IMG/VR virus record: IMGVR_UViG_3300032086_003797
Span: 110,626 to 174,625 of that record
Length of the DNA: 64,000 bases
Reading direction: 5' to 3' (one strand)
From: a virus
The translations under genes were made by a program, and so were the position numbers. Each line of letters begins with the position of its first letter. Position 1 is the first letter of the stretch. Under the pieces are notes generated by a model. The model was not told the DNA's origin and ran no database searches. It saw nothing but the letters and a program-made list of their open reading frames with translations. Of the stretch, positions 14,217-63,090 are shown piece after piece.

Positions 14217-14416
14217 CAAAGAAAAGACACTTAGCAAAGGCGCTTAGCTGGCGAGCCGTTGGAACAATAGATACCATGCTATTGGGTTGGCTCATATCGG
14301 GTGATCCTATGGTTGGGGTTAAAATTGGCGCAGTCGAATTGGTAACAAAAATATTTTTATATTATGCACACGAAAGAGCATGGTATAAATTCTCTAAGTT
14401 TGGGGTAAGAAAATGA
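14210..14416 (+). CDS. DUF2061-like small membrane protein
   Basis: KALSWR..GT.DT, K..LYY.HER.W. Confidence 0.75.
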
Positions 14417-15360
14417 CAAACAATTTACACTTTCATAATGCAACAGTATCAACCGAAGAGAAGGTACAAAAAAACAAACATAAGCCCGCTGTATTATGGT
14501 TTACAGGTCTTTCAGGTTCAGGTAAATCTACTTTAGCAAATGCAGTAGAAGTATTGCTATTCCGAAAAGGATACCAGACACACACCTTAGATGGTGACAA
14601 CGTTAGGATGGGACTCAATAGTGACCTCGGGTTCTCCCCAGAGGATAGAAAGGAAAACATCCGAAGGATTTCGGAGGTAGCTAATCTGTTGAGACAATCT
14701 GGCACAATAGTGTGCACAGCATTTATTTCACCATACCGCAAGAGTAGAAAATTTGCAAGAGAAATAATTGGAAAAGACTTTATAGAGATATATGTAAAAG
14801 CTCCATTAGAAACGTGTGAGGCTAGAGACCCTAAGGGATTATACAAAAAAGCTCGAAGCGGCGAAATCCCTAATTTTACTGGGATTAGTGCTCCCTATGA
14901 AGAGCCTAGAAGTCCAGAAATCATTGTGAACACAGCAGAGTTTAGCGTAGAAGAATGTGCTAATCACATTGTTGAGCACCTAGAGGAGAGTGGCTATTTT
15001 TCTACTATAAATGAAGTCAACGTACTGGACAAAAAAAGAACTATTGCGATTGATTTCGATGGTGTGATACATAGATACAGTCAGGGCTTCAAGGGTCTAA
15101 TGAATGCCTATGATGATCCAATGGATGGTGCAGAAGCAGCATTTGAGGTACTGAAAGGCGCAGGTAAAAGGCTGGTTATCTTGTCTTCCCGCCCATCTTC
15201 AGTAATAGAAAGCTGGCTAGAAGAAAGAGGCTTAAAGAAATACTTTGATGAAGTATCCAATTTTAAGATTCCAGCTAACACATATATCGATGATCGAGCA
15301 TATAAATTTAGAAATTGGACAGATACAGTTAGAGATCTACTAGAAGGGGAAGATCGATGA
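14413..15360 (+). CDS. cysC: Adenylyl-sulfate (APS) kinase fused to C-terminal HAD-like domain
   Basis: [13 protein letters not shown]-loop, [28 protein letters not shown]; C-term IAIDFDGVI and YIDDRA HAD motifs. Confidence 0.9.
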
Positions 15361-37000: not shown

Positions 37001-40000
37001 CGTGACGCTCTTGGCAGCTTTGACAAATTCACTTTATCTGGTGCTGCTTGGGTTGTGTATGATTACACTGGATCATCGTGGTTGTTTTCTACAGATCTTA
37101 GTGGTGCTAGCGGACCAACAGGTCATGAGAGCTTGTTATCGGCTGGGGCAATCAATAATATACACTATGTAGATATTTCTAGTGTGAGTAATGCAAAGGG
37201 TGTAATGACTGCTATGTCCTCTGCCATTTCTGCATCAGGTATAGGACAGGTCGCCACCGATGGTACTGGAGATCTAAATCAAACAGCCTCCATCACAAAC
37301 CTAACGATCCGCTCCCACAATAATCCAGGCGTAATGGAAATTACTTCGTCAGCCCAAGCATTTAGTAACATATTTATCTTACCTGATGAACAGGGTGGTG
37401 CAACTTTCTTAAGCACAGAAAACGATCTTGATAAATACACGGCAGCCGCTTCAGCGCAATCAGCTATGGGTGCGTCAACTGATGTCGAGGGTGTAACCGC
37501 AACAACAGGTTACCTCCGAAGCTTGCCGTTCGATGGTCTATCGGATTACCGCACAAATGACGCCTCAGCAATATTTACAGCCTCAAACGGACAGGTTCAA
37601 TATCGCTGGGGTGCTGGTAATAATTATAATTCTTGGCAACAAGTAAGACAGTCTCAGTTGAGGTCACGAGAAAGTATAGTTAAATCAAATCAAATAAATG
37701 TTTTTGAAGTTGCTATGAGTAATGGGAATCAAGTAGAAACACAAGTAACTCTTGATGATCCATTCTTGTTTATTTCGGCAGAGCCAATAAAAACAATATT
37801 ATCCGTGGTAGACGAAAACAGTCCTGAAGACGGTCAGTTGAAGTTCAGAGATATTACGGTGAAGCACTCGTATGGTAACCAGCGCCAAGGATTTATCAAT
37901 GGTGATGCTAATGTGAAACACAAATACACTGGCAAGGGTGACAAATTTCTTTATGATAGCTTACGAGATATAAGATCGATATCATATAGCAAGAACCTAG
38001 CTCCTGAGGAAACAGGTATTGGTAGAATTAAGAGCCACGAAATAACACAGCAAATTTATCCTCAAGCAAGGCACCAGTTCTTATCTGAGAGTATGTTGAG
38101 AAACAATTATTTGTACACCCGTTGGCAAAATGATGATGATGCTATAAACAATAGGATAGAGAACGACCTACATGTTGTATCAGATCTTTTCCAAGGCGAC
38201 CTTCCAAATCCTGATACGGATGACAAAGTGGCAGGTAGAATAGAATTAATATATAAAACACACAATAGGCAAGTGGATCGCCTGGTAGTAGGGTATACTA
38301 ATAGTCAAAACTACACATTAGAAGAGCATTACCAACACCCATTTGATATAGTGGATGGTATTGTTGCCAAAAGAACTGGCAGCGGAGGAGCATCAACTGA
38401 CGGCACAGCGTCTATCTGGCCTTTGGACTCTTTCTTGTTCAGCGATTCAGTATATTCAGGATCTATACCAGTATTATCAGGTGTTACGGTTGGTTCAATA
38501 TCAGCTAGCGCCCAATACGGAATCCATGATGCAGTACGATGGGACTTGAATTTCTTTACTAACCTTGGTGCGGGCGAACTAATGTGGTTCAGGGCAGGTG
38601 CAGCCGCCCGAACAGGTAGTCAGGGTTATGCACCGCAAGGGTGGTATACAAGAAGAAATTGCCAGTATATAAACCAAATGGTTCACCTAGATTTTGACAG
38701 CTTGTCCTCAGGGGTTAACTATACGCAATCTGTGTTTGGACCTTCGATGGGCGGAGCATTGTTTATGCCGCCTTGGACAGCAGGACGTGACCGTCGAGCA
38801 GTTGATGGCAATAACAAAGGTGAACTCATAGGATCTAGGGGACCTTTCTATAATACCTACGAAGACTTTGCTGATGGCGTAAAATTAGTTGGTCGTGGTA
38901 TGGGCATAATACCAGAGTTTAGAATTAGCGAACATATAGATCATTATGAAGGTACAAATAATGGTGATTATTTCGCTGCTAACACAGCATCATATTCTAT
39001 AACAGGTTCAGCTATCACTAACCTGAATAATTCAGCAGATGATGGATTCATGAAGAGATTCCAAAATACTGACTTTATAAAATACCTATCTCAGTTTATG
39101 GTAGAAGATCAGGATATGAATGGATTGCCAACAGATCTTAAACTAGAAGCACAGGCAGTGCAGAGGCTCTTACCTTATGATGGGTTTTATCCTGTTATAA
39201 GAACTTTGCAGATAGCTACTCTGTTTTCACAGTCTTACTCGCCAGGCTTATTCCCAGTTGCAGGCGGTCTCGGTGCCGCAGATCAAACTGAGATATCAGC
39301 TTCGGGCTGGCAGAATATATTGGATTATTTTTATGCCCCAGGTATCATGTATAACTCTATCAAGTCTGGTCTCGCAGTTGACCACCCTGTATTTACAGTC
39401 AAAGAAGACAGGATTCCAAGAGAAAAGGGAACCATAGGTGAAGTATTATCAGGTTCTACGGATGCTCAGACATTTGCAGAAATAGTAAGTGATACTAAGC
39501 GAGCAGCAGGACTTAGGCAGTCCGATCACACAATCGGACCATTGACGTCTGGCGGCGGCTCCCGTCGAGAAATAACTAAATTTTATAAAGATATTATTCT
39601 GCCTAGACGTCTTGGCACAGCCGAAGAGGTACAGCCAACAGGTAGCGAAGAATTTTTAGCCCATCAGATATATTTCCCAGACCGTATACCTTTTGAAACT
39701 ATTATTAATCCTACAGATTATTTGTTGCAAAATAAGTTTAACAGCAACCAAACATATGATTGGTTTAGAAATGACACCACATCTTCTTTCAGCTACTTTG
39801 CAAACAATAAATATGTTAAAGGTGCAGGCAACTTCTTCGGAGCAATCCCAGACGTATTCTTGGAAAACAGTAGGCTTACATCAATTGCAACCGACCCTAA
39901 CTTAGTTGACCCACAAGCTATTTCAGTACAGAGTGGTACCCTATATGCTATGGAGGTTGCTCTTAGAAAAACTGATCAATTCAATATGTACTCAAACCCA

Positions 40001-42127
40001 ATAGCCTTTGGACCCCCTACCGCCACGGGCTCCGCTTTCAATAGTGGCGATGAGATCCTAGCAACCCAAGGGCAAGCCACTCATACGTTTGATGATGATA
40101 TGGCGCAAGTCGTCACGGGTGATTGGGGAATGGTTAGATACGGATACCAGACTACGGCTAAGAATTTGCTAAACGCATCGCTAACAGGCAGTATGCCATC
40201 GGGAAGCGGCTGGCCTTTGCTGCATGGTAATCATGCACCTTACACGCCTCCTTACTGGTATGGTGAGTCATTTGCAAGAATATATTATTCTCCTACAGCT
40301 TCGGGCATGGTGACAATAAATGAGATCCTAGAAGAAGCACAATATGAGTATGGTAATGCAAATGACTATCTCTTTGATTTCAGATATAACGACCTGAATA
40401 AAACAGATGTCAGTGCTTCATTTGGGTCAGCTAATCTTAACTTACCCATGAATATTGTAACAGAAGGCGCTGGTGGCTTAGGATTACCGCCATATATGTG
40501 GAACCGAGCCTGGCAAAATAAGATGGAGATAAAGGCTTCGCTAACAATTAATAATAGACACCCAGGTAACATACAGCCAAACAATGCATGGGTCATTATG
40601 CCTAAGTGGGAATGTCCCATATTGGATTTCCCAGTTAGAGCCGAACCATGGGCTTCAACTAGTGGCTCTTATAACTTTACAGCTTCTTTTGCTAAGGTTG
40701 GTCTTGGCGACCGTGGGTTATTACCTTTCACAAGTCCAGCTAACGGCAGAGAAGTGTGCCCACAACAAGGTATGTGGCACCAATACGGGGTAGTGCCAGA
40801 TGCAGGAGAAGGTGTGCAAATGGTGCTCAGAGATATATCGTCAGGAGATAAAGAGAAGAGAATGAAAGCTCAGATAATTTATCCTGGCACCCAAGGACAA
40901 CCAAATGTTATTGGTGCAGCGGAAGAAAAGATGTTACCTAAAATACCAAATTCGCTGATGGATATAACAGCGTTTGGGGATAGAAAGAGGAAAGTAAGGT
41001 CGCTGGCTAAATTGGTAGGCTTTCCATCCGAAGTGGTTAATAAGCCAGTTGATTTAGGTCGAATAGCTAATAAGAAAACAGTTCATGAAGCTATAATAGC
41101 ACTGCCATATTATGAGGATGCGGAAGCTAATATACAATTTATTCCAATACCCTTGAAAGACGAGTCTAACCAGGTGGTAAGTGAGTTTGGAAAGCAAACA
41201 GCCAAGCTCAGGAAATCATTATCAAAATACATATTGCCACCAGTTATAGAACAAAGAATGTCTTACTTGGTGCCAGAATCATACCCATTATCTTCTGATG
41301 GGGAAGATCTTAGATTAAGACCAGATAGTGCTGTTTACAGCAATGAGGACCCACCACTAGCAATGTATTTGTTTGAGTTTACTACGGAACTAAGTAAACA
41401 GGACTTAGCAGACTGGTGGCAGGGAATAATGCCAGAACCAAGCACTAAGTTTAACAATACAACCATGAACATATCTACAATTGATCATGCTATGCCTGGC
41501 ATCGGTTTGCAAGATTTTGGTGCAAAGCCTGGAGCAGGCGGTGGTAAAGTAGACGAAAGGCTTCGTGACCTTATGGACACATCAAGGTTAGTAAGAGGCG
41601 GCTCGAAAAACGACCCAGGGTTTAGACCTGATATTAAGTGGATGGTGTTCAAAGTGAAGCAGCGTGCCCCAGCTACTTATGAAGAGCTTATCAAGAAAAG
41701 TCTAACTGAAGCAGGTGCAAAAGTGCCAGGTGCTACAGGTCAGACAGCATATGAAAATAGACCTAAAGGTTTCAACTGGCCGTATGATTTCTTTTCTGTG
41801 ATTGAATTAGCGAAGATTAACACCACAGTTACTTTCAGACCAGATATAGACACTATCACAGTAGAAGAAAAAGAAAATACTACACCAGTCAAAAGCCTAG
41901 AGGGCGGCAAGAGAGAAGAGGCACAAGTACCACCTCCAAAGCGTGGTCGCCCTAAGAAATCACCAGCTAAAAAAGAGCCAGCCAAGAAGACAACTGCGCC
42001 AAAGAAAAATCCGCCTAAAAAGCTACCACCTAAAGCTAAATCAAAACCTGCTCGACCTAAGGATGTTGCAAAGAAAAAAGTCTTACCTAATAAATCTAAC
42101 AGCAATCCAAAGAAAACACTCAAATAG
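31007..42127 (+). CDS. Giant virion structural protein (3706 aa) with LamG/concanavalin-like domains, a duplicated insert domain and a Lys/Pro-rich tail
   Basis: WDHYAFV..LYENG..LDEFRFW LamG-like motif; KSKGTRKS baseplate-like motif; internal ~150-aa repeat; basic C-terminus. Confidence 0.65.
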   Translation: MSIKKLFDAKKAGTLGGATRSTLKKLGDNVESPEQIEAALSKARAFSPKIDFSDPANFVKYGSAYRYYYDTFGYIKDYYPYDGSSREKLEFYNGLSPFEQYIFNNEYPKTTGYVTIGAIYGTDGASKQGYTTPTTAEYIQFKGGPHSGTFFATGSGLSNNLEFGGISGSTVEFFYNKTEFDSTISSPTEVILDIWNGVSSGSHDYGRLTIETDSGSADRFYVSYQSGSSGVFKASVPTAGGLTLGSGSWDHYAFVFSNSDDSTSIDLYENGTCKQSNILTGSSINLVTGSLIGRLGALRTAPGPIQASGYGTQATATDAIDMAGYQAAGDPAIKFNITIPVAAGGSNTTITIKFDISSGGSPVSAGADHITIGTAGSNDAANAALVIKAINGDTDSRITYGNGSGDGSSGIGVQGLTASAGSSSTKVTLTISKGGTSGNINSAVAHGAGTVNVVDVANFTGGAVIPAGDGKLSASLDEFRFWKEPRTAEEIGRNWYMGVNGGANTTINNSGLGIYYKFNEGITQVSTTDNVVLDYSSRLSNGAWTGYSTSGTRNTGSAIVSSSAAGFETADPIIYDTHPTYISSRDDLSSLGQQYDYTNNSSLYYTMPGWIIEQDERNGEELAKLTQIMGSYLDTLYAQVGGVLTVKDVSYPTGSVQESPNNDRLLSSLGFEAPDLFDSVGEIVRFLDKDDKRPLESSIHQIKNIIYKNIYNNLSYILKSKGTRKSFGNTLRCMGIDEKIVKISTYADNVEQTITSSYKAIPTEKKFVDFSGLRRYDDQAATIYQHYYADGYDGGSSGLISGNLDLGDNAFTLQADILFPLKPSPAEASYIEPTSPSSSLFGFHTPKITTTTSTDTAWASNTIDFGLQVYAVHATTDYSEITSPQGASRDAYFVVEDRFGNILLKTDTVREVYQNTRWVFALSARPKTYPFSQEVDGTDNDDQSYIIELYGTSFDLEDKRASFDSSKIVNFVTGSSTLASAKRIYAGAHRTDFSGSLLTRSDIRLNSCRFWNTFLTSSVVDQQAKDADAYGLVHPYRNVKTFQTSGSSVFIPAIESLALNWDFETVTGSDASGQFRVDDFSSGSNSTAYENNYQVEYAGTVQRHHSARGDFFKASDTPVRKEYFPSLRLQAPEELSSDDMITVIVEGSDDSVYGRAPRPIRHFFAVEKSMYDAISNDMLEMFASIDEFNNLIGEPVNKYRAEYKDLKKLREIFFRRVTGQRVDLDKYLDYYKWFDGALTNLVEQLFPASAPVAENTRNVVESHVLERNKYQHKYPTLEEYPFEPSGSIKGGYEQQYSWRFNHHPITMTGSVASAADAIDMDGYQAAADPSSRFTIQIPVAAGGSNTTITIKFDVSSGGSPSSYGANAITIATAGSDDASNAALVVKAINGTADSRITYGNAVSVGDGCAGIGVLGITAAEGSNNKKVTLTMTVAGTNGNITSAIAHGAGTVNLVDVNDFTGASDDIIKNDQGENCSWWANRAERNANPLNLGPNAVVGAATTLDRQNIFTSVRKKELDNQRNKFYKFGGAVEKSVAGGHNQSFNKIKANVLSFDQVSDQSTCTDEEVPAGSPLEKSRQKFRISIAGQTYKGDRMAPFSLYKALVPSEHNKQLTNTGLSGSHMTNIHEDSYYGSGFEVPMQGPFTSQHVGGLLARARTSQIEGAVNLRRENYRLTIASGTGSLARLDTEIGANSSGKGHYYRGITAKRPVNIANIAHQTASDGGGPGGSGGTIVGNFDKNYQVLQTSGRKINNLDFRDDPDAYNPSAFLSPYVGGLVETPVPSRRNTEYTLKARTTNKTIFVNRFSSPGSVETNTPAFLDFNSQEIAPNNALPFRNMLIRSVNEGHNTLSQGWGGHINTTQRSFLGLGYTIQDLNTGSFSTVVTSRHDVNRNAKPKPFLTQFDLSAFGQGQIESIGSGSIHNNNFITTPIPQADNMSWFMAYSGSDTQTYNHFFHSGGLMPESITVPSPPNLEGQSGINEGTPFSISAVAELTTIGIDARDALGSFDKFTLSGAAWVVYDYTGSSWLFSTDLSGASGPTGHESLLSAGAINNIHYVDISSVSNAKGVMTAMSSAISASGIGQVATDGTGDLNQTASITNLTIRSHNNPGVMEITSSAQAFSNIFILPDEQGGATFLSTENDLDKYTAAASAQSAMGASTDVEGVTATTGYLRSLPFDGLSDYRTNDASAIFTASNGQVQYRWGAGNNYNSWQQVRQSQLRSRESIVKSNQINVFEVAMSNGNQVETQVTLDDPFLFISAEPIKTILSVVDENSPEDGQLKFRDITVKHSYGNQRQGFINGDANVKHKYTGKGDKFLYDSLRDIRSISYSKNLAPEETGIGRIKSHEITQQIYPQARHQFLSESMLRNNYLYTRWQNDDDAINNRIENDLHVVSDLFQGDLPNPDTDDKVAGRIELIYKTHNRQVDRLVVGYTNSQNYTLEEHYQHPFDIVDGIVAKRTGSGGASTDGTASIWPLDSFLFSDSVYSGSIPVLSGVTVGSISASAQYGIHDAVRWDLNFFTNLGAGELMWFRAGAAARTGSQGYAPQGWYTRRNCQYINQMVHLDFDSLSSGVNYTQSVFGPSMGGALFMPPWTAGRDRRAVDGNNKGELIGSRGPFYNTYEDFADGVKLVGRGMGIIPEFRISEHIDHYEGTNNGDYFAANTASYSITGSAITNLNNSADDGFMKRFQNTDFIKYLSQFMVEDQDMNGLPTDLKLEAQAVQRLLPYDGFYPVIRTLQIATLFSQSYSPGLFPVAGGLGAADQTEISASGWQNILDYFYAPGIMYNSIKSGLAVDHPVFTVKEDRIPREKGTIGEVLSGSTDAQTFAEIVSDTKRAAGLRQSDHTIGPLTSGGGSRREITKFYKDIILPRRLGTAEEVQPTGSEEFLAHQIYFPDRIPFETIINPTDYLLQNKFNSNQTYDWFRNDTTSSFSYFANNKYVKGAGNFFGAIPDVFLENSRLTSIATDPNLVDPQAISVQSGTLYAMEVALRKTDQFNMYSNPIAFGPPTATGSAFNSGDEILATQGQATHTFDDDMAQVVTGDWGMVRYGYQTTAKNLLNASLTGSMPSGSGWPLLHGNHAPYTPPYWYGESFARIYYSPTASGMVTINEILEEAQYEYGNANDYLFDFRYNDLNKTDVSASFGSANLNLPMNIVTEGAGGLGLPPYMWNRAWQNKMEIKASLTINNRHPGNIQPNNAWVIMPKWECPILDFPVRAEPWASTSGSYNFTASFAKVGLGDRGLLPFTSPANGREVCPQQGMWHQYGVVPDAGEGVQMVLRDISSGDKEKRMKAQIIYPGTQGQPNVIGAAEEKMLPKIPNSLMDITAFGDRKRKVRSLAKLVGFPSEVVNKPVDLGRIANKKTVHEAIIALPYYEDAEANIQFIPIPLKDESNQVVSEFGKQTAKLRKSLSKYILPPVIEQRMSYLVPESYPLSSDGEDLRLRPDSAVYSNEDPPLAMYLFEFTTELSKQDLADWWQGIMPEPSTKFNNTTMNISTIDHAMPGIGLQDFGAKPGAGGGKVDERLRDLMDTSRLVRGGSKNDPGFRPDIKWMVFKVKQRAPATYEELIKKSLTEAGAKVPGATGQTAYENRPKGFNWPYDFFSVIELAKINTTVTFRPDIDTITVEEKENTTPVKSLEGGKREEAQVPPPKRGRPKKSPAKKEPAKKTTAPKKNPPKKLPPKAKSKPARPKDVAKKKVLPNKSNSNPKKTLK
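31946..32392 (+). repeat. Intragenic repeat domain, copy 1 (~150 aa)
   Basis: ATATDAIDMAGYQAA...IPVAAGGSNTTITIKFD...DSRITYGN...AHGAGTVNVVDVANFTGG. Confidence 0.9.
34940..35392 (+). repeat. Intragenic repeat domain, copy 2 (~150 aa)
   Basis: ASAADAIDMDGYQAA...IPVAAGGSNTTITIKFD...DSRITYGN...AHGAGTVNLVDVNDFTGA. Confidence 0.9.
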
Positions 42128-51476: not shown

Positions 51477-52571
51477 ATGTCTTATCTCCATCGGTTCGGT
51501 CCAGATGATATATTTCATAACCAACTAAAAACGCACCCGCAGTTTAAAGTTACACTGTACAGCGGCTCTGCCTACATTAACGATCGCAGAAATGATAATG
51601 TAGGTAATGGCGTTATTGATTTATATGAAACCATTAATGGAGCTTTTCCGTTTGCCGTAAAAGATGGCACAACAACAGTACTAAACACAACAAACCAAAA
51701 CACATTTAATACCTCAGATTACGGTGATACCTTCAACGGCACATATCCACTATCAGCATCCGTAGACAGGGAAATGATCCAAAAGAATGGTGACCGCAAA
51801 AGAATGGCGGCATTACAAAATACTATAAACTATTACGAGTATCAAAACAAGCATTTTAACTTTGCAACACACTTCACTGGTAGTGATGTCAACTTGGTTA
51901 GTATTCCTAGTATAATGTTTGGCTCATCAATTAAAAAAGGCAGCGTAAAACTAAACTATTATTTTACTGGATCTCTGATGGCTACAGCAGAGGACTCGAA
52001 ACGCAATGGTGAACTTATAGAAACCAAGGGACCAAATGTTGGTAGCACAGTTGGGGTTGTTTTATACAACGAGGGGTTCATGCTGTTAACGGCTAGTTAC
52101 CATATTTCTAATGTCAACACAGATTGTTATTCGGGTTCAGCATCAAGTCAATTTGCTCCTAACTGGGCAAACTTTGCAGCGTACAACACGGGAACATTTC
52201 ACCCTAGCTCATCAATCTCAGAGATTAACTTTGAAGGCACACATACGATCCCTACAGTGACCATGTTTGCACACGCTCCTGAGGGTCAACTCAACGCCTC
52301 GATGAATCCAACATTTTATACCGATGGGCAGCAGTATGATGCAAATGATTTATCTAACACGTCTTTTGTAGAGCCAGATAAAATCAATATCAAAAACACA
52401 ATGCAATCAGTTTTTTGCTCATCAAGCGCCCAAATAGAAAAGCAGGTGTTTATAAGTAAAATAGGCATTTATGATCAAGACAAAAATCTAATAGGAGTAG
52501 CCAAACTAGCAAACCCAGTAAGAAAAGAAGAATCCCAAGGATTCACATTCAAATTAAAGCTTGACATTTAA
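51477..52571 (+). CDS. Virion structural protein, paralog of 50329..51465
   Basis: IKKGS, G.V.Y..G, N.S.NPT, C-term ISKIGIYD..KNLIGVAKLANPVRK..KLKLDI. Confidence 0.55.
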   Translation: MSYLHRFGPDDIFHNQLKTHPQFKVTLYSGSAYINDRRNDNVGNGVIDLYETINGAFPFAVKDGTTTVLNTTNQNTFNTSDYGDTFNGTYPLSASVDREMIQKNGDRKRMAALQNTINYYEYQNKHFNFATHFTGSDVNLVSIPSIMFGSSIKKGSVKLNYYFTGSLMATAEDSKRNGELIETKGPNVGSTVGVVLYNEGFMLLTASYHISNVNTDCYSGSASSQFAPNWANFAAYNTGTFHPSSSISEINFEGTHTIPTVTMFAHAPEGQLNASMNPTFYTDGQQYDANDLSNTSFVEPDKINIKNTMQSVFCSSSAQIEKQVFISKIGIYDQDKNLIGVAKLANPVRKEESQGFTFKLKLDI

Positions 52572-52589
52572 ATAAAGATAGTATATAAT
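52561..52589 (+). promoter_or_regulatory. Perfect-consensus sigma70 promoter TTGACA-N17-TATAAT
   Basis: TTGACA 52561-52566, TATAAT 52584-52589; ATG at 52597. Confidence 0.85.
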
Positions 52590-52596
52590 AGTCTGC

Positions 52597-53175
52597 ATGA
52601 TACTAGGATTAGATATTTCATCCACTATGATAGGCGCAGCCGTCATAGATCCCACTACTGGCGACCTGGTGCACTGTAAGGGCTGGGACTTGTCTAAGAT
52701 AGACAACAGCTACACCAAATACGAGATGGTAGGCTCAGAGCTTTATACTCTAAGAAGAGAGCATGAAATCGAACATGTTTTTATTGAGACAGCATTGAAG
52801 AGATTTGTCCCTGGTAGATCAAGGGCAGATACTATTATCAAATTGGCTAAATTCAACGGTGTTGTATCCTGGTTATGCTTTAATGAGTTGGAGCTTGAGC
52901 CAACATTTATCAATGTCAATACGGCTCGCTCTTTATATGGGCTATCCTTCCCTCGTGGCACTAAAGGACCACAAAGAAAGAAGATGGTTATCCAGGCGGT
53001 TATAGAAAGAGAAAAGACGTCGTTTCCTTATGAGATGGCTAGAGGCGGAAAAAACTATAAACGTGGAACAGACGACCGAGCAGATGCAGTTGTAATTGCT
53101 AGGGCAGGCGAGTTTTTGTTGAAGAACAAAGATAACAAAGGTTTCCTAACAGAAAAGATAGTTTTGACAGAGTAG
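52597..53175 (+). CDS. RuvC-like Holliday junction resolvase
   Basis: ILGLDISST..G, VFIE, L.KFNGVV, DDRADAVVIA. Confidence 0.8.
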   Translation: MILGLDISSTMIGAAVIDPTTGDLVHCKGWDLSKIDNSYTKYEMVGSELYTLRREHEIEHVFIETALKRFVPGRSRADTIIKLAKFNGVVSWLCFNELELEPTFINVNTARSLYGLSFPRGTKGPQRKKMVIQAVIEREKTSFPYEMARGGKNYKRGTDDRADAVVIARAGEFLLKNKDNKGFLTEKIVLTE

Positions 53176-53221: not shown

Positions 53222-53521
53222 ATGAAGCTCACTGAAGACATGATTAGAGAGTTGATCAGAGAAGAGATCAACACCACCAATATTCAAGAAGAACCCGAAC
53301 CCGCCCCAGCAGAAGAATCTGATGTACCTAACCAGGTTAAGGTTGCCCTTAAGCAAATTATGGGCGACGGCGGTGATGCAAAAATTCTAGAAAAACTTAA
53401 GATGTATATGCAGAAGCAAAACGTCGCTAGACAGACAATGGTTGCAGATGTTCTGCTGAATATGATCGGCTTAGATTTAGAGCCTACGAAACTTAGAGCG
53501 GCTGTTACCACCAATGCATAA
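53222..53521 (+). CDS. Leader-family protein (MKLTEDMIRELIREE), unknown payload
   Basis: AAGGAG RBS before ATG 53222; type-B leader. Confidence 0.65.
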   Translation: MKLTEDMIRELIREEINTTNIQEEPEPAPAEESDVPNQVKVALKQIMGDGGDAKILEKLKMYMQKQNVARQTMVADVLLNMIGLDLEPTKLRAAVTTNA

Positions 53522-53969
53522 TATATTCACAGGCTGGAAACGCTTCCTTGCGGAAGAAAAAATGTCAGACCTCGGCAGCGGCGGTGCTTATGTCGCCAAG
53601 GTCGGTGGCTTGAAGGTTGTAATAGATCTAGATGATTTAGATCTGCAATCTACTAAGCACAGTAAAGAGCGACAATTTAGGCACGATAGAAAGATATCGA
53701 ACGAAGCTATCGTTGGAACAGTAGAGATGGCATTAGGCAAAATAATAAATGACTATGCAAACGGCGAGCTAGCTAATGAAGAGGCATTTCACATCAAGGG
53801 AGTCAGTAAAGCTAAGTCTGTCCCAGACCTTAATGTTATAGGGGTGCTCAATATGCAAAAAGGTCCTGACACACTAAAAGTAATTACAGTAATGAGAAAA
53901 GATGACTTCAAGACTGATAGTTTTGGAGGAGGTCAGCAGAAAACATATACTGTAAACCCAAGGCAGTAA
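53514..53969 (+). CDS. Leader-family protein (W..FLAEE) with possible RelE/BECR-like nuclease payload
   Basis: MHNIFTGWKRFLAEE; STKHSKERQFRH...KVITVMRK resembles DUF4258/BECR-fold patterns. Confidence 0.45.
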   Translation: MHNIFTGWKRFLAEEKMSDLGSGGAYVAKVGGLKVVIDLDDLDLQSTKHSKERQFRHDRKISNEAIVGTVEMALGKIINDYANGELANEEAFHIKGVSKAKSVPDLNVIGVLNMQKGPDTLKVITVMRKDDFKTDSFGGGQQKTYTVNPRQ

Positions 53970-53984: not shown

Positions 53985-54263
53985 ATGAACTTCACACATG
54001 ATAACCTCAGGGAACTTATTCGAGAAGCGATCTTAGACGAAAAGAAAAAGCGTAAAGCTAAGAGAAAAGCTTCTAGTCGCCGTAAAGCTAAGAAGAAAAA
54101 AAGACGAGTAAAGCGTAAAGCTAAAAAAGCTAAAAGAGATGCTTGCTACCATAAGGTCAAGGCACGTTATGATGTATGGCCTTCAGCTTACGCTTCGGGT
54201 GCTTTGGTAAAGTGCCGCAAAGTTGGCGCAGCGAACTGGGGCGAAGGTGGTAAAAAGAAATGA
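53985..54263 (+). CDS. Leader-family highly basic protein
   Basis: MNFTHDNLRELIREAILDE then poly-K/R tract and DACYHKVKARYDVWPSAYASGALVKCRK. Confidence 0.65.
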   Translation: MNFTHDNLRELIREAILDEKKKRKAKRKASSRRKAKKKKRRVKRKAKKAKRDACYHKVKARYDVWPSAYASGALVKCRKVGAANWGEGGKKK

Positions 54264-54625
54264 AAATCACCAAAGATCAGCTACGGGAAATGATCAGAGA
54301 AGCACTTCTTGACGAAAAGAAAAAAAAGAAGAAGCGCAAGAAGAGAAAAGTAAAACGTAAGAAACGTAAGCTCACCAGTAAGCCAGGATCAGAATCGAAT
54401 CTTGGTGACTGGTTTGGTCGCAAAGGCGCACCAGGCAGTAAAAGCGGATGGGTAGATTGCAACACTTGTCGCAAAGATAAAAAGACAGGCAGAAAAAAAT
54501 GTAAAGCTTGTGGACGTGGTAGCGGTGAAAAGCGATCCAAATATCCAAAGTGCAGACCCACACCAGGGGCATGTAGCAAGCGAGGTAACTACGGTAAAAA
54601 ATCAAAGGCAGGTAAAAAAGGATGA
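54260..54625 (+). CDS. Leader-family basic Cys-rich protein
   Basis: MKITKDQLREMIREALLDE, poly-K, WF..GWVDC..CGR..YPKCRP. Confidence 0.65.
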   Translation: MKITKDQLREMIREALLDEKKKKKKRKKRKVKRKKRKLTSKPGSESNLGDWFGRKGAPGSKSGWVDCNTCRKDKKTGRKKCKACGRGSGEKRSKYPKCRPTPGACSKRGNYGKKSKAGKKG

Positions 54626-55323
54626 AGATTACAAAAGACCAAATTAGAGAACTGATTAAAAAGCAAATCGAAGAGCGTTGTCAAAAAGGTTACAAGACCC
54701 ACCCTACCCGCAAAACAAAAGTAATGTTTGGTAAAAAATATAGAAATTGTGTTAAGGCAGAATCAATCTCAGAGGGTGTACAATACCACATGCAAAATAA
54801 CCTTCCTATCACGGAATGTGTTTATCGTCTTGGTTCAGACGCTTACTTTGCCACAATCAAGGAAGTCAAACAACTCAATGAAAGAGGAATGTACAACTTA
54901 TCCAAAGAGGAAGAAGATTTCATAAATGAAAATCCTGACCTTGGAGAATGGGCTTGGCACGAGGAGGAGGGGCAAAATGTCCCGTTAGGATTCCCCATGT
55001 ATGTAGAAGCTTCCCCAGAGTTGTATGAGGCTAAGAAGAAGAAGGCAAAAAAGAAAGGTCCACTTGGGAAGCCAATGAGAAACACAGGCTCTGGCAAAAA
55101 ATATAAAGTTTATATGAAAGATCCTAAAACAGGGAACATAAGAACTATTACTTATGGAGACGCAAAGGGTGGTCTTGAGGGCAACTGGAATGACCCAGAG
55201 GCAAGAAGCTCATATGCTAAACGTCACAACTGTGAGGACAAGAAAGACAGAATGTCAGCAGGCTATTGGTCATGCAGATCCCATAAGGATTTTGGAAAGA
55301 ACGTACCAGGCAGGTTCTGGTAA
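54622..55323 (+). CDS. Leader-family multi-module protein
   Basis: MKITKDQIRELIKKQIEE; modules CQKGY..NCVK, CVYRLGS, and KKYKVY..GD..KRHNC..AGYWSC. Confidence 0.65.
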   Translation: MKITKDQIRELIKKQIEERCQKGYKTHPTRKTKVMFGKKYRNCVKAESISEGVQYHMQNNLPITECVYRLGSDAYFATIKEVKQLNERGMYNLSKEEEDFINENPDLGEWAWHEEEGQNVPLGFPMYVEASPELYEAKKKKAKKKGPLGKPMRNTGSGKKYKVYMKDPKTGNIRTITYGDAKGGLEGNWNDPEARSSYAKRHNCEDKKDRMSAGYWSCRSHKDFGKNVPGRFW

Positions 55324-55324
55324 T

Positions 55325-55603
55325 ATGTTCCCGTTTGAAGAGACAGTTATAAAGCATAACACAGTATTGCGTGAGTTTGCTCATGATGTCGATTCGGACG
55401 AGCTTATCTGGCACCTTGATCGTGAAGATAGAAAAATTAGAGTCCTGGAGTCTAACGGATGGAAATTACAACTTGACAACAAACTACCTATTATGTTAGA
55501 AGGTGGTAAGAGCTACTGGATACCTAAATACATGTACCACAGAGTTATTAAGGGACAAGGTAATCTTGTTGTTGAAATAAGAAAATACGAGGAAGAACAA
55601 TGA
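55325..55603 (+). CDS. Small cupin-like protein
   Basis: WHLDREDR...W.LQLDN..P...IPK..YHRVIKG.G.L (cupin-like His motifs); ATG 55325. Confidence 0.5.
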   Translation: MFPFEETVIKHNTVLREFAHDVDSDELIWHLDREDRKIRVLESNGWKLQLDNKLPIMLEGGKSYWIPKYMYHRVIKGQGNLVVEIRKYEEEQ

Positions 55604-56064
55604 AAAAACTACTAACAGAGTGGCGGAAGTATATAAACGAAGAAATAAAAGTAGCTGTCAATGCTGCTAAGAAGTATATTTGCCCACCTGCAACCCAAGA
55701 TCTCGAACTCAACACCAGGAACCGTGACGCCTCTATCAAAGCAGAGCACATTCAGTATGGACCGCTCAATGTAGATGAGCCAGGTGATTACTGGAAAGAT
55801 ATTGCTGAGTACTGGAACACAACTGAAGAAGCAGCTAAAAAATCAAATTGCAGCAACTGTGTTGCGTTTGATATTTCTCCACGAATGAAAGAGTGTATGC
55901 CAGGTGATACATCAGATGAAGATGGTGAACTAGGCTACTGCTGGATGCACCACTTTAAGTGTCACTCGGCTCGATCTTGCAGAACATGGGCTAAGGGTGG
56001 ACCCATAGATAAAGACGAGATATCCCACGACTGGCAAGAGAGAAATAAGTTCCCAGAGGAGTAA
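55600..56064 (+). CDS. Leader-family protein (MKKLLTEWRKYINEE) with Cys-rich metal-binding payload
   Basis: CSNCVAF..C..GYCWMHHFKCHSARSCRTW. Confidence 0.65.
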   Translation: MKKLLTEWRKYINEEIKVAVNAAKKYICPPATQDLELNTRNRDASIKAEHIQYGPLNVDEPGDYWKDIAEYWNTTEEAAKKSNCSNCVAFDISPRMKECMPGDTSDEDGELGYCWMHHFKCHSARSCRTWAKGGPIDKDEISHDWQERNKFPEE

Positions 56065-56065
56065 T

Positions 56066-56233
56066 ATGTTAACAAAACACCTTATAGAACAAGACATGAC
56101 ATACCTCCAGCACCTACTACATGCTGGCAAATATTCTGCCAAGCTAATGTTGTGTGCAGGTGGCTTGCTTATTCATGCAATATTTCCATTTATATTGGTG
56201 GATTTTGCATCAAAAAGAGTGGAGCTAAAGTAA
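56066..56233 (+). CDS. Small hydrophobic protein (DUF6356-like), 55 aa, absent from ORF track
   Basis: MLTKHLIEQDMTYLQHLLHAGKYSAKLMLCAGGLLIHAIFPFILVDFASKRVELK*; fills the gap exactly. Confidence 0.65.
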   Translation: MLTKHLIEQDMTYLQHLLHAGKYSAKLMLCAGGLLIHAIFPFILVDFASKRVELK

Positions 56234-56234
56234 T

Positions 56235-56768
56235 ATGAAGCTTCTTATGGAACAGTGGCGACAGTTTATAAATGAGGGCTCAAAGTTCAAGCTCAAGGGT
56301 GACTCGGAATACTTTCGCATTGACCTTCAAGGTATTGGTTATGCCCAAGGGATGCAGCACCTAAGATTTAAAGAATGTCAGTCAGATGTTGACGCTCTTA
56401 TGGAGACACCAGAATTTATAAAAGCCAAAGAAAAATACGAAGCCAACAATACCACAAAAGATATGGCACAAGACGAAGACGGCAATTATTTTATGAAAGA
56501 AGTGCCAGCTAAGTTCAGACCAAGATTTTATGATATAGAAAACGCATGGATCACAAACCCAGAACAAAGAGGTAAAGGGTACGGCAAAGAATTGTATAAA
56601 GCATTTATCGCCCAAGCAGCAGAATACGCCAAGTCTTATGGCGGTGTATTTGTTGGGGCTCACCACTGCACCATAGGCTCAGGAACCTCGGACGATGCCA
56701 AGAGAGTATGGAAATCAATAACGAGGGACTATACATCATCAGGTGATGTGGTATTTATAGGACTATGA
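56235..56768 (+). CDS. Leader-family protein with GNAT-like acetyltransferase payload
   Basis: MKLLMEQWRQFINE; PEQRGKGYGKELY (GNAT motif A), SDDAKRVW. Confidence 0.65.
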   Translation: MKLLMEQWRQFINEGSKFKLKGDSEYFRIDLQGIGYAQGMQHLRFKECQSDVDALMETPEFIKAKEKYEANNTTKDMAQDEDGNYFMKEVPAKFRPRFYDIENAWITNPEQRGKGYGKELYKAFIAQAAEYAKSYGGVFVGAHHCTIGSGTSDDAKRVWKSITRDYTSSGDVVFIGL

Positions 56769-57388
56769 AAGAACTATTAACAGAGTGGCGGAAGTATTTA
56801 TTGTCCGAAGGGATGAAGACTATAAAAGATCTCCCTGAAGGATCAAGCATACTTGTTAGCATTGGACAAGATATTCAATTGGCTTATAAGCACGAGGGTC
56901 AAACACTCTACCATGCAAACGCTGGTGATCCTCCTCCACCTGACGATGCCCCTTGGGGGTCCATGACTTCAATAAAACTAAAGAAGCCTTGCCTAGACGG
57001 CTATCAGGTCGTGCAGGCATCCGCCAGAAAAGGTTGGGGTCCACTTTTATATGACATAATGTTAGAACTGACAAGCGAACTTGGCGGCGGGCTTACTGCC
57101 GACCGAGGCAGCGTTTCTAGAGATGCCTATCAAGTATGGGATTATTATATGCGGAAACGAAAAGATGTAGAGGCTAAACAGCTAGACATTACCAATCGTG
57201 ATTTTGAGAAGGTTACCCCTGACGATGAATCCGATGACTGCGAACAATCATCTTCAATTAGGTGGGCTAGAGCCAACAACCTTGATAAGGAGTACGGCTG
57301 GTCATCTCAGCCCACAGCTTATTTATACAGCAAGGGTTCAACTCCAACATTGGACGCTTTGCGTGCGGCAGGTAAATTAGAAGAATGA
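56765..57388 (+). CDS. Leader-family protein with divergent GNAT-like payload
   Basis: MKELLTEWRKYLLSE; ARKGWGPLLYD..GLTADRGSVSRDAYQVW. Confidence 0.55.
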   Translation: MKELLTEWRKYLLSEGMKTIKDLPEGSSILVSIGQDIQLAYKHEGQTLYHANAGDPPPPDDAPWGSMTSIKLKKPCLDGYQVVQASARKGWGPLLYDIMLELTSELGGGLTADRGSVSRDAYQVWDYYMRKRKDVEAKQLDITNRDFEKVTPDDESDDCEQSSSIRWARANNLDKEYGWSSQPTAYLYSKGSTPTLDALRAAGKLEE

Positions 57389-57918
57389 AAAAACTACTAA
57401 CAGAGTGGCGGAAGTATCTGAAGGAATCAAAGTTCCTACCAGATACTTTGTATCATGGCACCACTGAGGTGTTTGATAAATTCGACGACAGCAAGGTAGG
57501 TAGAAGAGATAGTGGTAACTTAGGTAGAGGCATATACCTATCGATCGATAGTGACATGGCTATGAGTTACGCAGAGGAAAATGCCAAGCGATTTGGAGGA
57601 GACCCAGTTGTCCTAGAAGTAGAACACAGCCTAGAGAATGTAGCCAACTTCAATGAGCATATAGACGACTTGAAACAACTAGGTGTAAACTTCCCACCAA
57701 AAGCAAATGACCCTGAACGCTCGGCAGCATTAACAAAATACTTTACAGAGAAAGGCTTTGATGGTGCCCACTCGGGTCACGAAATAGTCGTCTTTGATGT
57801 TAGCAAACTAAATATAAAAGGCGTCGGTGATATTCCTTCAACCAAAGAGGCTTGGAAGATCAAGGCAAGAGCTAAAGCTGACAAGCTTGGAATACCATAT
57901 GAGGATTTAGGATTATGA
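57385..57918 (+). CDS. Leader-family protein with ADP-ribosyltransferase-like payload
   Basis: MKKLLTEWRKYLKES; LYHGT, LGRGIYLS..A.SYA, GFDG..EIVVFD (H-Y-E type ART pattern). Confidence 0.7.
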   Translation: MKKLLTEWRKYLKESKFLPDTLYHGTTEVFDKFDDSKVGRRDSGNLGRGIYLSIDSDMAMSYAEENAKRFGGDPVVLEVEHSLENVANFNEHIDDLKQLGVNFPPKANDPERSAALTKYFTEKGFDGAHSGHEIVVFDVSKLNIKGVGDIPSTKEAWKIKARAKADKLGIPYEDLGL

Positions 57919-58304
57919 AAAAACTATTAAACGAATGGCGACAGTTTCTCAAAGAGTCACAAGTGTTTGACGAAGAAGAAATGGTTAACGCACTAAACAA
58001 AAACGGTAGAGATATGTATGGATTAATTGATGATCTTAACGATCTAGGGTACGATGCTAAGGAAAGCCCTGCTCTGATACAAAAATATACTAGGGACGGA
58101 GACAGAAATTATAAACAACCAAAGGTGAAAGAGTTTATAGCAGACCACCCAGAGGGTGTCTATATAATAGTGCATCAGCCATTAATGGGCATAGGCACTA
58201 TTAACCTTCTGATAAATGGTGATCAAATATCTGGAGATCAAAAGCTAATAGGAGGAAGGGCTATAGCTGGTCCTGTCGGTGTTGTAAAGGGCAAAGAAGA
58301 ATAA
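57915..58304 (+). CDS. Leader-family protein, unknown payload
   Basis: MKKLLNEWRQFLKES. Confidence 0.65.
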   Translation: MKKLLNEWRQFLKESQVFDEEEMVNALNKNGRDMYGLIDDLNDLGYDAKESPALIQKYTRDGDRNYKQPKVKEFIADHPEGVYIIVHQPLMGIGTINLLINGDQISGDQKLIGGRAIAGPVGVVKGKEE

Positions 58305-58305
58305 A

Positions 58306-58971
58306 ATGAAAAAGCTAATGACAGAGTGGAGAGAGTTTTTGAAGGAGGGTCTTGATCCTCGTATACAGAAGCAATTGAATGCTTTGTTGGAGCGTGAGAA
58401 TCTCGGCATTGTATTGAGTGTATTTGCAGGCGGCGACGGTGCTGAAGTAAGATATGTAAAAATAGAAGATTACGAAAACGAACAGTTTTCTGATTTGAAA
58501 GAAGGCGCTGCGGTTTACGGCGGCGTAGAAATCAGCAGAGCCCTTGAGGATGAGCAAGGACCGTGTTTCGATGGACACCTTGTCATAGGATCAAGAGCGG
58601 AAAGAGGTTGGGGTCCATTGTTATATGAGGTTGCTCTAGAGTGGGCTTCGCAGAACGGTGGCGGTCTTATGCCCGATAGGTTTTCGGTATCCGATTATGC
58701 TTTAGCGGTCTGGTCTAAATACGAAAAACGATCAGATGTAAAACCAAGTCAAATGGATGTTGCCCATGGTCTAGATGGGATCTCTTCAAGAACGCTTGAT
58801 TATTTCCCGCAACTAACCCCAGACAAAAAAGAAGACGATTGTGACCAGACCGTGCCTATTGGCAGAAGAAGCACTGACTGGCCTAAAAGTCCCCTATCTA
58901 AGATATATTCTAAAAGTTCTGCTGATACTATCAAAGCACTACAAAAAGCCAAAAGGTTAATTGTAGTATGA
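58306..58971 (+). CDS. Leader-family protein, paralog of 56765..57388 (GNAT-like)
   Basis: MKKLMTEWREFLKEG; PC.DG, A.RGWGPLLYE..GGGL..DR.SVS..A..VW, TPD...DDC.Q. Confidence 0.6.
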   Translation: MKKLMTEWREFLKEGLDPRIQKQLNALLERENLGIVLSVFAGGDGAEVRYVKIEDYENEQFSDLKEGAAVYGGVEISRALEDEQGPCFDGHLVIGSRAERGWGPLLYEVALEWASQNGGGLMPDRFSVSDYALAVWSKYEKRSDVKPSQMDVAHGLDGISSRTLDYFPQLTPDKKEDDCDQTVPIGRRSTDWPKSPLSKIYSKSSADTIKALQKAKRLIVV

Positions 58972-59216
58972 AAAAGCTTCTAACAGAGTGGCGGAAGTTT
59001 CTAAACGAGATTAAGCTTGACATTAAAGTTGGTGATGTTCTCTTGGGCGGCAAGTTCAAAAACAAGCGAGTGATTGTAAAGAGTATTGGAAAAGATGCAT
59101 TAGGGCAGCCAACAATCAACGGTCAATCTCTCCTTAAGTTTAGGATTGAAAAGAATCTACCAGATAGCAAGAAAAGCAAAAAGACTTTAGAAGCTGGGAA
59201 TAAAGATGAATCATAA
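58968..59216 (+). CDS. Leader-family protein with small KOW/SH3-like payload
   Basis: MKKLLTEWRKFLNE; IKVGDVLLGGKFKNKRVIVKSIG. Confidence 0.6.
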   Translation: MKKLLTEWRKFLNEIKLDIKVGDVLLGGKFKNKRVIVKSIGKDALGQPTINGQSLLKFRIEKNLPDSKKSKKTLEAGNKDES

Positions 59217-59592
59217 ACTCATAATGGAAAACTGGCGAGGTTACCTCAACGAGGAAACATACCTCAACGAGGAGCTTCTTGATGAGGGGTTGAGAGATTG
59301 GCTAAAAGCTAAGTCTACATCGGCGATTGAATCAATCAAGTCTAGCTTGGCAAAAGTTGGGCAGGAGATAAAAGAGTCTGGCGAAGCGGGCAAGCTTATA
59401 CTAAAAGCAGCCAAAGGCACGGCGTTATCTGAGGAAGAGAAATCATTTTTAAAAAGACAACTACGAGACATAGGAGTGGGAGCAGTTTTGCTAGCACTCT
59501 TTATACCCCCAGGTGGCGCACTTGCAATTGGCGCACTTGTAAAATTAGGCAAATATTTTAATATTGATATCTTGCCTAGTGCATTTATGTAA
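59206..59592 (+). CDS. Leader-family protein with LETM1-like hydrophobic payload
   Basis: KLIMENWRGYLNEE; LSEEEK.FLKRQLRD..LLALFIPPGG. Confidence 0.5.
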   Translation: MNHKLIMENWRGYLNEETYLNEELLDEGLRDWLKAKSTSAIESIKSSLAKVGQEIKESGEAGKLILKAAKGTALSEEEKSFLKRQLRDIGVGAVLLALFIPPGGALAIGALVKLGKYFNIDILPSAFM

Positions 59593-60715: not shown

Positions 60716-61210
60716 ATGCCCTGGAAAGTACGCAGAAGAGATTGCAAACAAGCAAGCGGAAAGCCTGGCAAATATATAGTTGTTAAGGTAAAGCGTGGTG
60801 GCAAAGAAGAAAAAGAATCTTGCCATATAAACAAAGATAAAGCGCAGGCCGCTACTAGAGCACGGTATGCGAATGAATCCCTGCAAGAATCAGATCCAAA
60901 AAAAGGCTCAGGTAAAAAACCAAAAGGTTCAGGTCGTAGGCTGTACACAGATGAAGACCCAAGTGACACAGTGTCAGTCAAGTTTAGAACCGTGCAGGAT
61001 ATAAAGGATACTTTATCTAAATCGTCTTTCAAATCTAAATCACACAAGCGCCAGTCACAGATAATCAATTTGATACACCAGAGAGCTAGAGCAGCGTACC
61101 AAAACGCAAAAGACCCAGAAGTAAAAGCTCGCCTCAAAAAAGCATATGACTATGCCGCAGAACGCAAAGAAGCGTCAAAGAAAAAAACACAACAAAAAAA
61201 TAAAAAGTAA
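60716..61210 (+). CDS. Basic two-module hypothetical protein
   Basis: MPWKV..C..CH..A; LQE linker; DPKKGSGKKPKGSGRRLYTDE module. Confidence 0.6.
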   Translation: MPWKVRRRDCKQASGKPGKYIVVKVKRGGKEEKESCHINKDKAQAATRARYANESLQESDPKKGSGKKPKGSGRRLYTDEDPSDTVSVKFRTVQDIKDTLSKSSFKSKSHKRQSQIINLIHQRARAAYQNAKDPEVKARLKKAYDYAAERKEASKKKTQQKNKK

Positions 61211-62823: not shown

Positions 62824-63090
62824 ATGAAATTCACCGAATCTGAACTACGAGAAATTATTAAAGAAGAGCTTATGAGCGAGCGATCTGGCGTCACGGGTGC
62901 CGAGATCAAGCAAGCGAGACTGATTATTAAAAAACACCTAAAGCAGATGTTTGACGAAATAGGCAGAGACAAGCTGCCCGAAAAATTCTCAACAGAAATA
63001 CTTATCCAGCCAATTTTAGACAAGTGGTCCCAAGGTCGCCGTGGTCCTGTGAAAGCCTATAATCCGTTGACACGGAAAATGACTAGCTAG
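62824..63090 (+). CDS. Leader-family protein (MKFTESELREIIKEE)
   Basis: AGGAGG RBS; type-B leader; ACTACTTA motif at 62783. Confidence 0.65.
   Translation: MKFTESELREIIKEELMSERSGVTGAEIKQARLIIKKHLKQMFDEIGRDKLPEKFSTEILIQPILDKWSQGRRGPVKAYNPLTRKMTS

Follow-up and report, generated by a model that had tools for sequence, protein, structure and literature searches.

Analysis of a 64,000-nt stretch of the virus record IMGVR_UViG_3300032086_003797 (hereafter the window, which is the last 64 kb of the 174,625-bp record; completeness 95% by CheckV estimate) led to an array of small genes that start with one of two recurrent leader-coding sequences, designated here as type A and type B. All genes of the window lie on the + strand. 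We consider it probable that the array is a hypervariable locus of genes for capsid-targeted internal proteins, which would be exchanged at the leader DNA by general homologous recombination. Comparison with relatives, all of which are metagenome assemblies, showed that the locus is polymorphic in gene number, order and identity. The type A leader peptide is MKKLLTEWRKFLKE, the type B leader peptide is MKITKDQLRELIRE, and the master form of the type A leader DNA is the 33-mer ATGAAAAAACTACTAACAGAGTGGCGGAAGTAT. The following type A copies start array genes in the window:

55600..55632, + strand: type A leader, exact master 33-mer; starts gene 55600-56064; its ATGA is the stop of the open reading frame (ORF) 55325-55603
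56235..56276, + strand: diverged type A leader MKLLMEQWRQFINE; junction TAA-t-ATG
56765..56797, + strand: type A leader, 2 mismatches to the master; its ATGA is the stop of 56235-56768
57385..57417, + strand: type A leader, exact master 33-mer; starts the ADP-ribosyltransferase gene; its ATGA is the stop of 56765-57388
57915..57956, + strand: diverged type A leader MKKLLNEWRQFLKE; its ATGA is the stop of 57385-57918
58306..58347, + strand: diverged type A leader MKKLMTEWREFLKE; junction TAA-a-ATG
58968..59000, + strand: type A leader, 3 mismatches to the master; junction left by a one-cassette difference from the relative L004

An earlier note on this DNA had already pointed to the two identical and the two near-identical copies; these are read directly from the sequence, and the 33-mer had no match in 100 dinucleotide shuffles. 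The diverged copies of that note (56235, 57915 and 58306) were detected at both the protein and the DNA level. Degenerate type A copies are also present at 53514 and 59206, and one more type A gene, at genome position 53759, belongs to a second cluster of type B-tagged genes outside the window (genome 53150-56131). Type B leaders start the genes at 53222, 53985, 54260, 54622 and 62824. The repeat begins exactly at the ATG, and the 15 bases upstream differ between copies. The payloads had been described as unrelated. This stands for the two identical leaders, which precede a high-potential iron-sulfur protein (HiPIP)-like payload at 55600 and an ART-PolyVal payload at 57385, but not for 56765 and 58306, which are paralogues. 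Whole-gene tandem duplication was considered as a source of the repeat and rejected, because identical leaders are followed by unrelated payloads.

Most cassettes abut or overlap by 4 nt, with no intergenic spacers, and two ORFs of the array have no leader (55325-55603 and 56066-56233). At seven junctions (55600, 56765, 57385, 57915 and 58968, together with 54260 and 54622 of type B) the initial ATGA of the leader is both start and upstream stop, exactly as had been claimed. The junctions of 56235 and 58306 are of the TAA-n-ATG form, and the gene at 59206 overlaps its upstream gene by 11 nt. Among relatives, the ATGA overlap was found at 155 of 255 non-redundant leader junctions (61%), compared with ~11% of adjacent gene pairs genome-wide, a figure that rests on crude ORF calls. 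This high frequency marks a very tight coupling that travels with each cassette. The supply of the upstream stop by the leader is hence real and common, but it is not required for a crossover between leaders, because a crossover inside the leader would leave the upstream junction untouched. The ATGA overlap would then be a translational-coupling junction carried along with the cassette and dispensable for exchange.

The strongest evidence for exchange comes from relatives that differ by exactly one cassette between two leaders, the empty site keeping a single leader, and three independent pairs of this kind were found. The closest relative, L004, is ~87% identical to the window and collinear with it, and carries an extra 137-aa cassette between its leaders at 6874 and 7288. 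The upstream flank of the window leader at 58968 matches the flank of the 6874 leader, its downstream payload matches that of 7288, and both alignments cover 58968-59008, a shared stretch of 41 nt that corresponds to the leader. The second difference lies between L021 (8245) and L025 (10834/11217), with a 32-nt overlap, and the third between G004 (7411) and both G005 (6752/7264) and G003 (6656/7153), with a 27-nt overlap. More than 20 contigs carry the 137-aa cassette that is missing from the window, and many different genes adjoin it on either side.

Replacement of payloads was observed as well. Between G003 and G005, DNA homology enters the leader of the cassette located between payload families F5 and F12, breaks, and resumes at the ATG of the next leader; the payloads enclosed (165 aa in G003 and 171 aa in G005) are merely 26% identical. 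One payload follows a type B leader in G003, whereas in G004 and G005 it comes after a type A leader and a spacer domain. When the window is compared with G001, core genes share 70% DNA identity, while the GNAT-like and ADP-ribosyltransferase (ART) cassettes reach 91-92% and have different genes between them. Concerning the gene at 55600, its orthologues in G001, G003, G004 and G005 have other leader codons, while the window copy is identical to the 57385 leader over 33 bases. The window differs from L004 over 54670-55661, and homology resumes only at 55661, downstream of the 55600 leader; this leader copy looks replaced or converted. In total, the 344 leader ORFs of 111 loci represent 54 payload families, and the downstream neighbours of a common family belong to as many as 13 different families. 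Relatives vary in the order and content of their payloads, and this shuffled order, together with the three one-cassette differences, supports the proposal of the earlier note that recombination between leaders swaps payloads.

The leader DNA is also more alike than the peptide requires. In the paralogous type A leaders of the genome, the same-codon fraction over codons 2-11 is 0.63, compared with 0.36-0.39 expected by codon usage (z ~5-7), while codons 12-15 show no excess (0.33 vs 0.40-0.44 expected). An identity at synonymous sites beyond codon bias, as suspected earlier, is hence present and confined to codons 2-11. Type B leaders have a smaller excess (0.50 vs 0.38-0.41). In an alignment of 77 non-redundant leaders from this phage and its relatives, CGG is the Arg9 codon in 36, compared with 4% of Arg codons genome-wide. 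A search with the codon-blind pattern MKKLLTEWRK[YF] led to 22 loci in virus contigs; 13 of the 32 distinct leaders found in this way have exactly the master bases, for which the expectation is ~3e-5 per leader, and another 11 deviate by a single base. The exact 33-mer is present in 92 marine metagenome contigs, before at least 32 unrelated payload clusters. Searches of GenBank phage DNA with the array and with the 33-mer gave chance partial matches only, and the leader was found in no sequenced isolate.

Such conservation could reflect a function of the bases themselves in mRNA or DNA, as an unstructured initiation region, a site bound by a translational regulator or a recognition site, the cassette differences being due to unrelated mechanisms. 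The codon preference is indeed common to distant phages (same-codon fraction of 0.56 when both payload and genome differ), the conserved tract ends abruptly at codon 11 though the peptide motif continues, and the tract is A-rich and barely folds, as would suit a start region. We nevertheless regard this explanation as unlikely. In orthologous cassettes, leader and payload have similar synonymous identities (0.84 vs 0.84, 0.80 vs 0.73 and 0.56 vs 0.51), a comparison that the earlier note had proposed; orthologous leaders drift like their payloads, which argues against selection on the leader bases. Payload families conserved across distant genomes (F6, F12 and F14) retain their own diverged leader codons, and the master form is found mostly on variable payloads. 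CGG, GAG and AAG are among the preferred codons, although a start region would be expected to favour A/T-rich ones. Folding of the leader regions was no better than that of shuffled sequence, and a homologue of the RegA-type translational repressor was not found. Concerted evolution of leaders within each genome was examined and rejected, since the likeness is 0.57 within the same genome and 0.56 between different genomes, with no clear within-genome excess; the master form is therefore clade-wide and not homogenised per genome. Given the free drift in orthologues, the lack of RNA structure and the lack of RegA, the master leader is best explained as the product of repeated copying and transfer of leader DNA.

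The genes of the array and its surroundings are listed below:

52597..53175, + strand: RuvC-like gene, 192 aa; weak RuvC match (E-value = 0.057, below cut-off)
53222..53521, + strand: type B-leader gene, leader motif MKLTEDMIRELIRE
53514..53969, + strand: gene with degenerate type A leader MHNIFTGWKRFLAEE; its payload family bears a canonical leader in the relative G004
53985..54263, + strand: type B leader and small Lys/Arg-rich protein (sequence)
54260..54625, + strand: type B leader and small Lys/Arg- and Cys-rich protein; ATGA is the stop of 53985-54263
54622..55323, + strand: type B leader and two-domain payload; ATGA is the stop of 54260-54625
55325..55603, + strand: leaderless ORF of 92 aa, missing from the close relative L004
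55600..56064, + strand: type A cassette, Cys-rich HiPIP-like payload; GenBank phage relatives are annotated HiPIP
56066..56233, + strand: leaderless hydrophobic 55-aa ORF, kept in relatives
56235..56768, + strand: type A cassette, weakly GNAT-like payload (Acetyltransf_1, E-value = 0.0014, below the Pfam cut-off; phrog_1249)
56765..57388, + strand: type A cassette, 207-aa payload; paralogue of 58306 (alignment)
57385..57918, + strand: type A cassette, putative ADP-ribosyltransferase (ART-PolyVal, E-value = 1.3e-7, 32.9 bits vs cut-off of 31.2)
57915..58304, + strand: type A cassette, 129-aa payload (sequence)
58306..58971, + strand: type A cassette, 221-aa payload; paralogue of 56765 (alignment)
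58968..59216, + strand: type A cassette, 82-aa payload (sequence)
59206..59592, + strand: gene with degenerate type A leader MNHKLIMENWRGYLNE; L004 (7526-8230) has ~106 extra residues right after the leader W-R
62824..63090, + strand: isolated type B-leader gene MKFTESELREIIKE, downstream of the primase gene

Pfam and PHROG scans gave no match for most payloads. The structure model of the 207-aa payload has a mean pLDDT of 67, with the leader as a separate, low-confidence N-terminal helix. Foldseek against the PDB returned no match at E-value ≤ 0.001 for this model, and its weak top matches were mostly GNAT acetyltransferases, which is only a hint of a GNAT-like fold. The HiPIP-like payload has a homologue in the Actinomycetia phage DSL-LC01 that adjoins genes annotated as capsid maturation protease. 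The same homologue lies near a giant hypothetical-protein gene (at least 9.9 kb), and a 3706-aa ORF without Pfam match is located in the virion module of the window (31007-42127). The two type B-tagged small proteins at 53985-54625, with their long Lys/Arg runs, recall the basic internal proteins of T4. The 82-aa payload at 58968 corresponds to the C-terminal domain of a 209-aa protein in L021 (8245-8871) and in L025, where it is preceded by L-Q-E and not by a leader; this arrangement suggests gene fusion or fission at a putative protease site. A module starting KVxKVNEKxYKQYASRLSE is inserted right after the leader W-R in two unrelated genes (59206 compared with L004; L029 and L030 compared with L028). 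Since it is present in some relatives and absent in others, domain-level shuffling takes place at the leader too. Finally, a basic 164-aa ORF at 60716-61210 is absent from L004 and from every other fetched locus.

The genomic context and the peptide itself suggest a role for the leader in the phage head. Judged by its genes, the phage is a distant, uncultured lineage of marine T4-like myoviruses, because its capsid protein is just 37-45% identical to those of the nearest isolates (Flavobacterium, Microcystis and Rhodothermus phages). A gp21-type prohead protease (Peptidase_S77, PF03420, 95.6 bits, E-value = 2.3e-28) is encoded at genome position 14021-14446 and also matches phrog_207 (E-value = 1.6e-51), and a gp23-type major capsid protein was identified through PF07068 (E-value = 2.1e-64). 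Between these two genes lies that of an acidic 338-aa protein with 13 [LI]xE motifs (3.85 per 100 aa, compared with 1.19 on average in the genome). No scaffold family matched this protein in the PHROG comparison, and its position and composition suggest a scaffold-like role. Directly after the protease, a 123-aa gene (genome 14521-14892) starts with a type B-like motif and has six [LI]xE sites. The genome also encodes baseplate genes, a RecA/UvsX-type recombinase and a metallophosphoesterase at the gp47/SbcD position.

The leader is 14 residues long. All of the 77 aligned leaders have W8, and F or Y occupies position 11; L, I or V predominates at position 12, and 69 of the leaders have E at position 14. 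The type A leader ends in the gp21 cleavage motif L/I-x-E, after which T4 gp21 is known to cut (PMC9026906). The capsid targeting sequences of T4 are N-terminal propeptides of 10-19 residues, of which residues 4 and 7 target the protein and residues 8 and 10 direct its processing (PMC9026906), and the T4 capsid targeting sequence is MKTYQEFIAE (PMC8442874). The pattern aromatic-x-x-F-[IL]-x-E is common to the leader (W-R-K-F-L-K-E) and to T4 (Y-Q-E-F-I-A-E), and coincides with T4 residues 4, 7, 8 and 10. The leader is most likely a capsid-targeting, protease-removed tag for loading into the head, and a payload set comprising an ADP-ribosyltransferase, GNAT-like and HiPIP-like proteins and small Lys/Arg-rich proteins fits an injected arsenal.

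Several observations weigh against these interpretations, some of them concerning the tag and others the exchange. The likeness between leader and T4 is a 7-residue pattern, too short for statistically supported homology, and packaging and cleavage are deduced from motif and context only. Furthermore, the sole strong promoter-like site before the array is a perfect sigma-70 site, TTGACA-17-TATAAT, at 52561-52589, just before the RuvC-like gene; it is hence of early type, and the exact site is absent from six relatives. The T4 late promoter TATAAATA has 7 matches vs 6.8 expected, none of them placed before cassettes, and internal promoter- and terminator-like sites in the array are no commoner than in shuffles. 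The early-type promoter, together with the modelling of the leader as a low-confidence free helix, would suit another kind of N-terminal module, such as a degradation signal, an amphipathic helix that binds membranes, or a docking site for a common chaperone or partner, in which case exchange at the DNA level would still hold. This possibility seems improbable to us: the T4 head-maturation gene set is present in the genome, the gp21 motif ends the leader in ~90% of copies, a type B-like motif starts the gene right after the protease, and the payload mix of an ADP-ribosyltransferase and small basic proteins parallels Alt and the internal proteins of T4. The leader is also too polar for a secretion signal, and the internal-protein genes of T-even phages are likewise tied to early promoters (PMC2839356).

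Concerning the exchange, assembly jumps can arise in the metagenome relatives where co-occurring strains have short repeats in common. In the third one-cassette difference (G004/G005) the flanking leaders share little exact identity, and something other than simple homologous recombination may have produced it. Alignments are also lengthened by the conserved leaders, so that a breakpoint in the leader is partly built in for replacements and only the exact one-cassette differences are diagnostic. If the leader-bounded differences and the shuffled order were wholly artefacts of assembly across the shared repeat, the true arrays would be stable. The relatives are indeed all assembled contigs, and in loci L033-L112 the master 33-mer lies ≤150 nt from a contig end in 19 of 98 cases, compared with 9.7 expected, an excess that fits population variability but also warns of assembly trouble. 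However, the exact stretch shared by neighbouring leaders is usually shorter than 33 nt, and the final k-mers of common assemblers are longer than that. The flanking leaders of L004 share only ~26 exact bases, the junction leader of the window has its own substitutions, as other junction leaders do, and the arrangements recur in independent samples and assemblies; for these reasons the concern about assembly jumps is lessened. Cassette divergence moreover differs from that of flanking core genes, unlike what a jump within one population would give, and we hold an origin by misassembly to be very unlikely.

The model that we favour can be outlined as follows. Each cassette would consist of a 14-residue amphipathic leader and an unrelated payload. 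The leader most likely docks the payload into the prohead scaffolding core, a gp21-type protease would cut it after L/I-x-E (residues 12-14), and the trimmed payload would be packed with the DNA and then injected. As DNA, the initial 33 bases of the type A leader would act as a dispersed direct repeat at every cassette boundary. The homologous recombination machinery of the phage itself would cross over between leader copies, both within a genome and between co-infecting relatives, and such a crossover could delete, insert, replace or re-leader a cassette while start codon, frame, tag and upstream junction stay intact. What the genome comparison displays is the outcomes of exchange, from which we infer the recombination mechanism. 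The tyrosine integrase family PF00589 was unmatched not only in the window, where the earlier note had seen no integrase, but across the whole 174,625-bp genome. As there is neither an integrase nor an attC-like site and a RecA/UvsX-type recombinase is present, general homologous recombination is likely. T4-type phages shuffle cassettes between short repeats and need less than 50 bp of homology (PMC2839356, PMC9391042). It is highly doubtful that the leader is instead a dedicated, translated recombination site at which a phage factor excises and captures cassettes as circles, for example the product of the RuvC-like gene, which precedes the array region directly after a 364-aa conserved gene in seven of the seven genomes compared. 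Such a site, if real, would be a true phage counterpart of the integron, building arsenals of injected proteins across the marine T4-like clade.

If exchange at a head-loading tag is the correct reading, one short sequence would do two jobs, its peptide addressing the protein to the head and its DNA linking the cassettes. A single crossover would then swap proteins while keeping start codon, frame and tag, which would explain how an abundant group of uncultured marine phages keeps up a stock of dozens of injected enzymes that can replace one another. One tag precedes at least 54 payload families, 32 of which follow the identical 33 bases. The tag could serve as a simple search key for candidate first-strike anti-defence and host-takeover proteins in viromes, and as a candidate packaging signal for engineering relatives once these are cultured. 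Reportedly, Repoila et al. made a proposal in 1994 on the T-even internal-protein loci (IPI, IPII, IPIII and Alt), as cited in PMC2839356 and PMC12373910; our interpretation would extend it in scale, by far, and also in mechanism, the coding sequence itself being put to use.

Among known systems, the array can be compared with integrons and with polymorphic toxin loci. The earlier description of an integron-like array holds as a picture: both consist of compact cassettes in a row, for the most part apparently promoterless, whose content varies and whose boundaries each bear a repeated element. It does not extend to the machinery, since here there is no IntI-type integrase and no attC-like folded site, the repeat is translated and the exchange is probably homologous. 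In polymorphic toxin loci (Rhs, CdiA), the C-terminal toxin modules can be swapped and stand behind a conserved coding motif. As in the array, this motif is at once a protein boundary and a stretch of homology for payload swapping, but there the modules are C-terminal parts of a large conserved delivery protein, whereas here separate genes carry a 14-residue N-terminal tag.

The closest precedents are the T-even internal-protein loci and the shuffling mediated by PeSLs, intergenic promoter and stem-loop elements of ~100 bp, in phages RB49 and phi1 (PMC2839356). The T-even loci for internal proteins are hypervariable, and the capsid targeting sequence is all that they have in common (PMC3012670, PMC12373910). 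Like the array, they combine a T4-type head and a gp21-type protease with small proteins that are otherwise unrelated but begin with a short leader ending in L/I-x-E, with a cargo that includes an ADP-ribosyltransferase (Alt in T-even phages) and basic proteins, and with variation of gene number, order and identity. The leader described here differs in its length (14 residues vs 10), in its sequence and in its two classes. More than 20 genes per genome are tagged, compared with 3-4, and at least 54 payload families occur across relatives. The genes are chained by ATGA overlaps without intergenic promoter or stem-loop elements, and the boundary repeat is the leader-coding DNA itself, as one master sequence common to distant phages, whose capsid protein reaches 37-45% identity at best to any isolate. 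PeSL shuffling resembles the array in that small accessory genes lie between short dispersed repeats, close relatives are distinguished by repeat-bounded cassettes with one chimeric repeat left, and the proposed mechanism is general recombination of the phage, with less than 50 bp of homology needed; mini-circles have been demonstrated for PeSLs (PMC2839356). Each PeSL, however, drives its own gene, whereas the repeat here is a coding stretch of 33 bases, start codon included, and the genes seem to lack promoters of their own. What sets the array apart from these precedents is the scale, the two classes of tag, the coupling of genes without intergenic modules and the use of tag-coding DNA as the linker.

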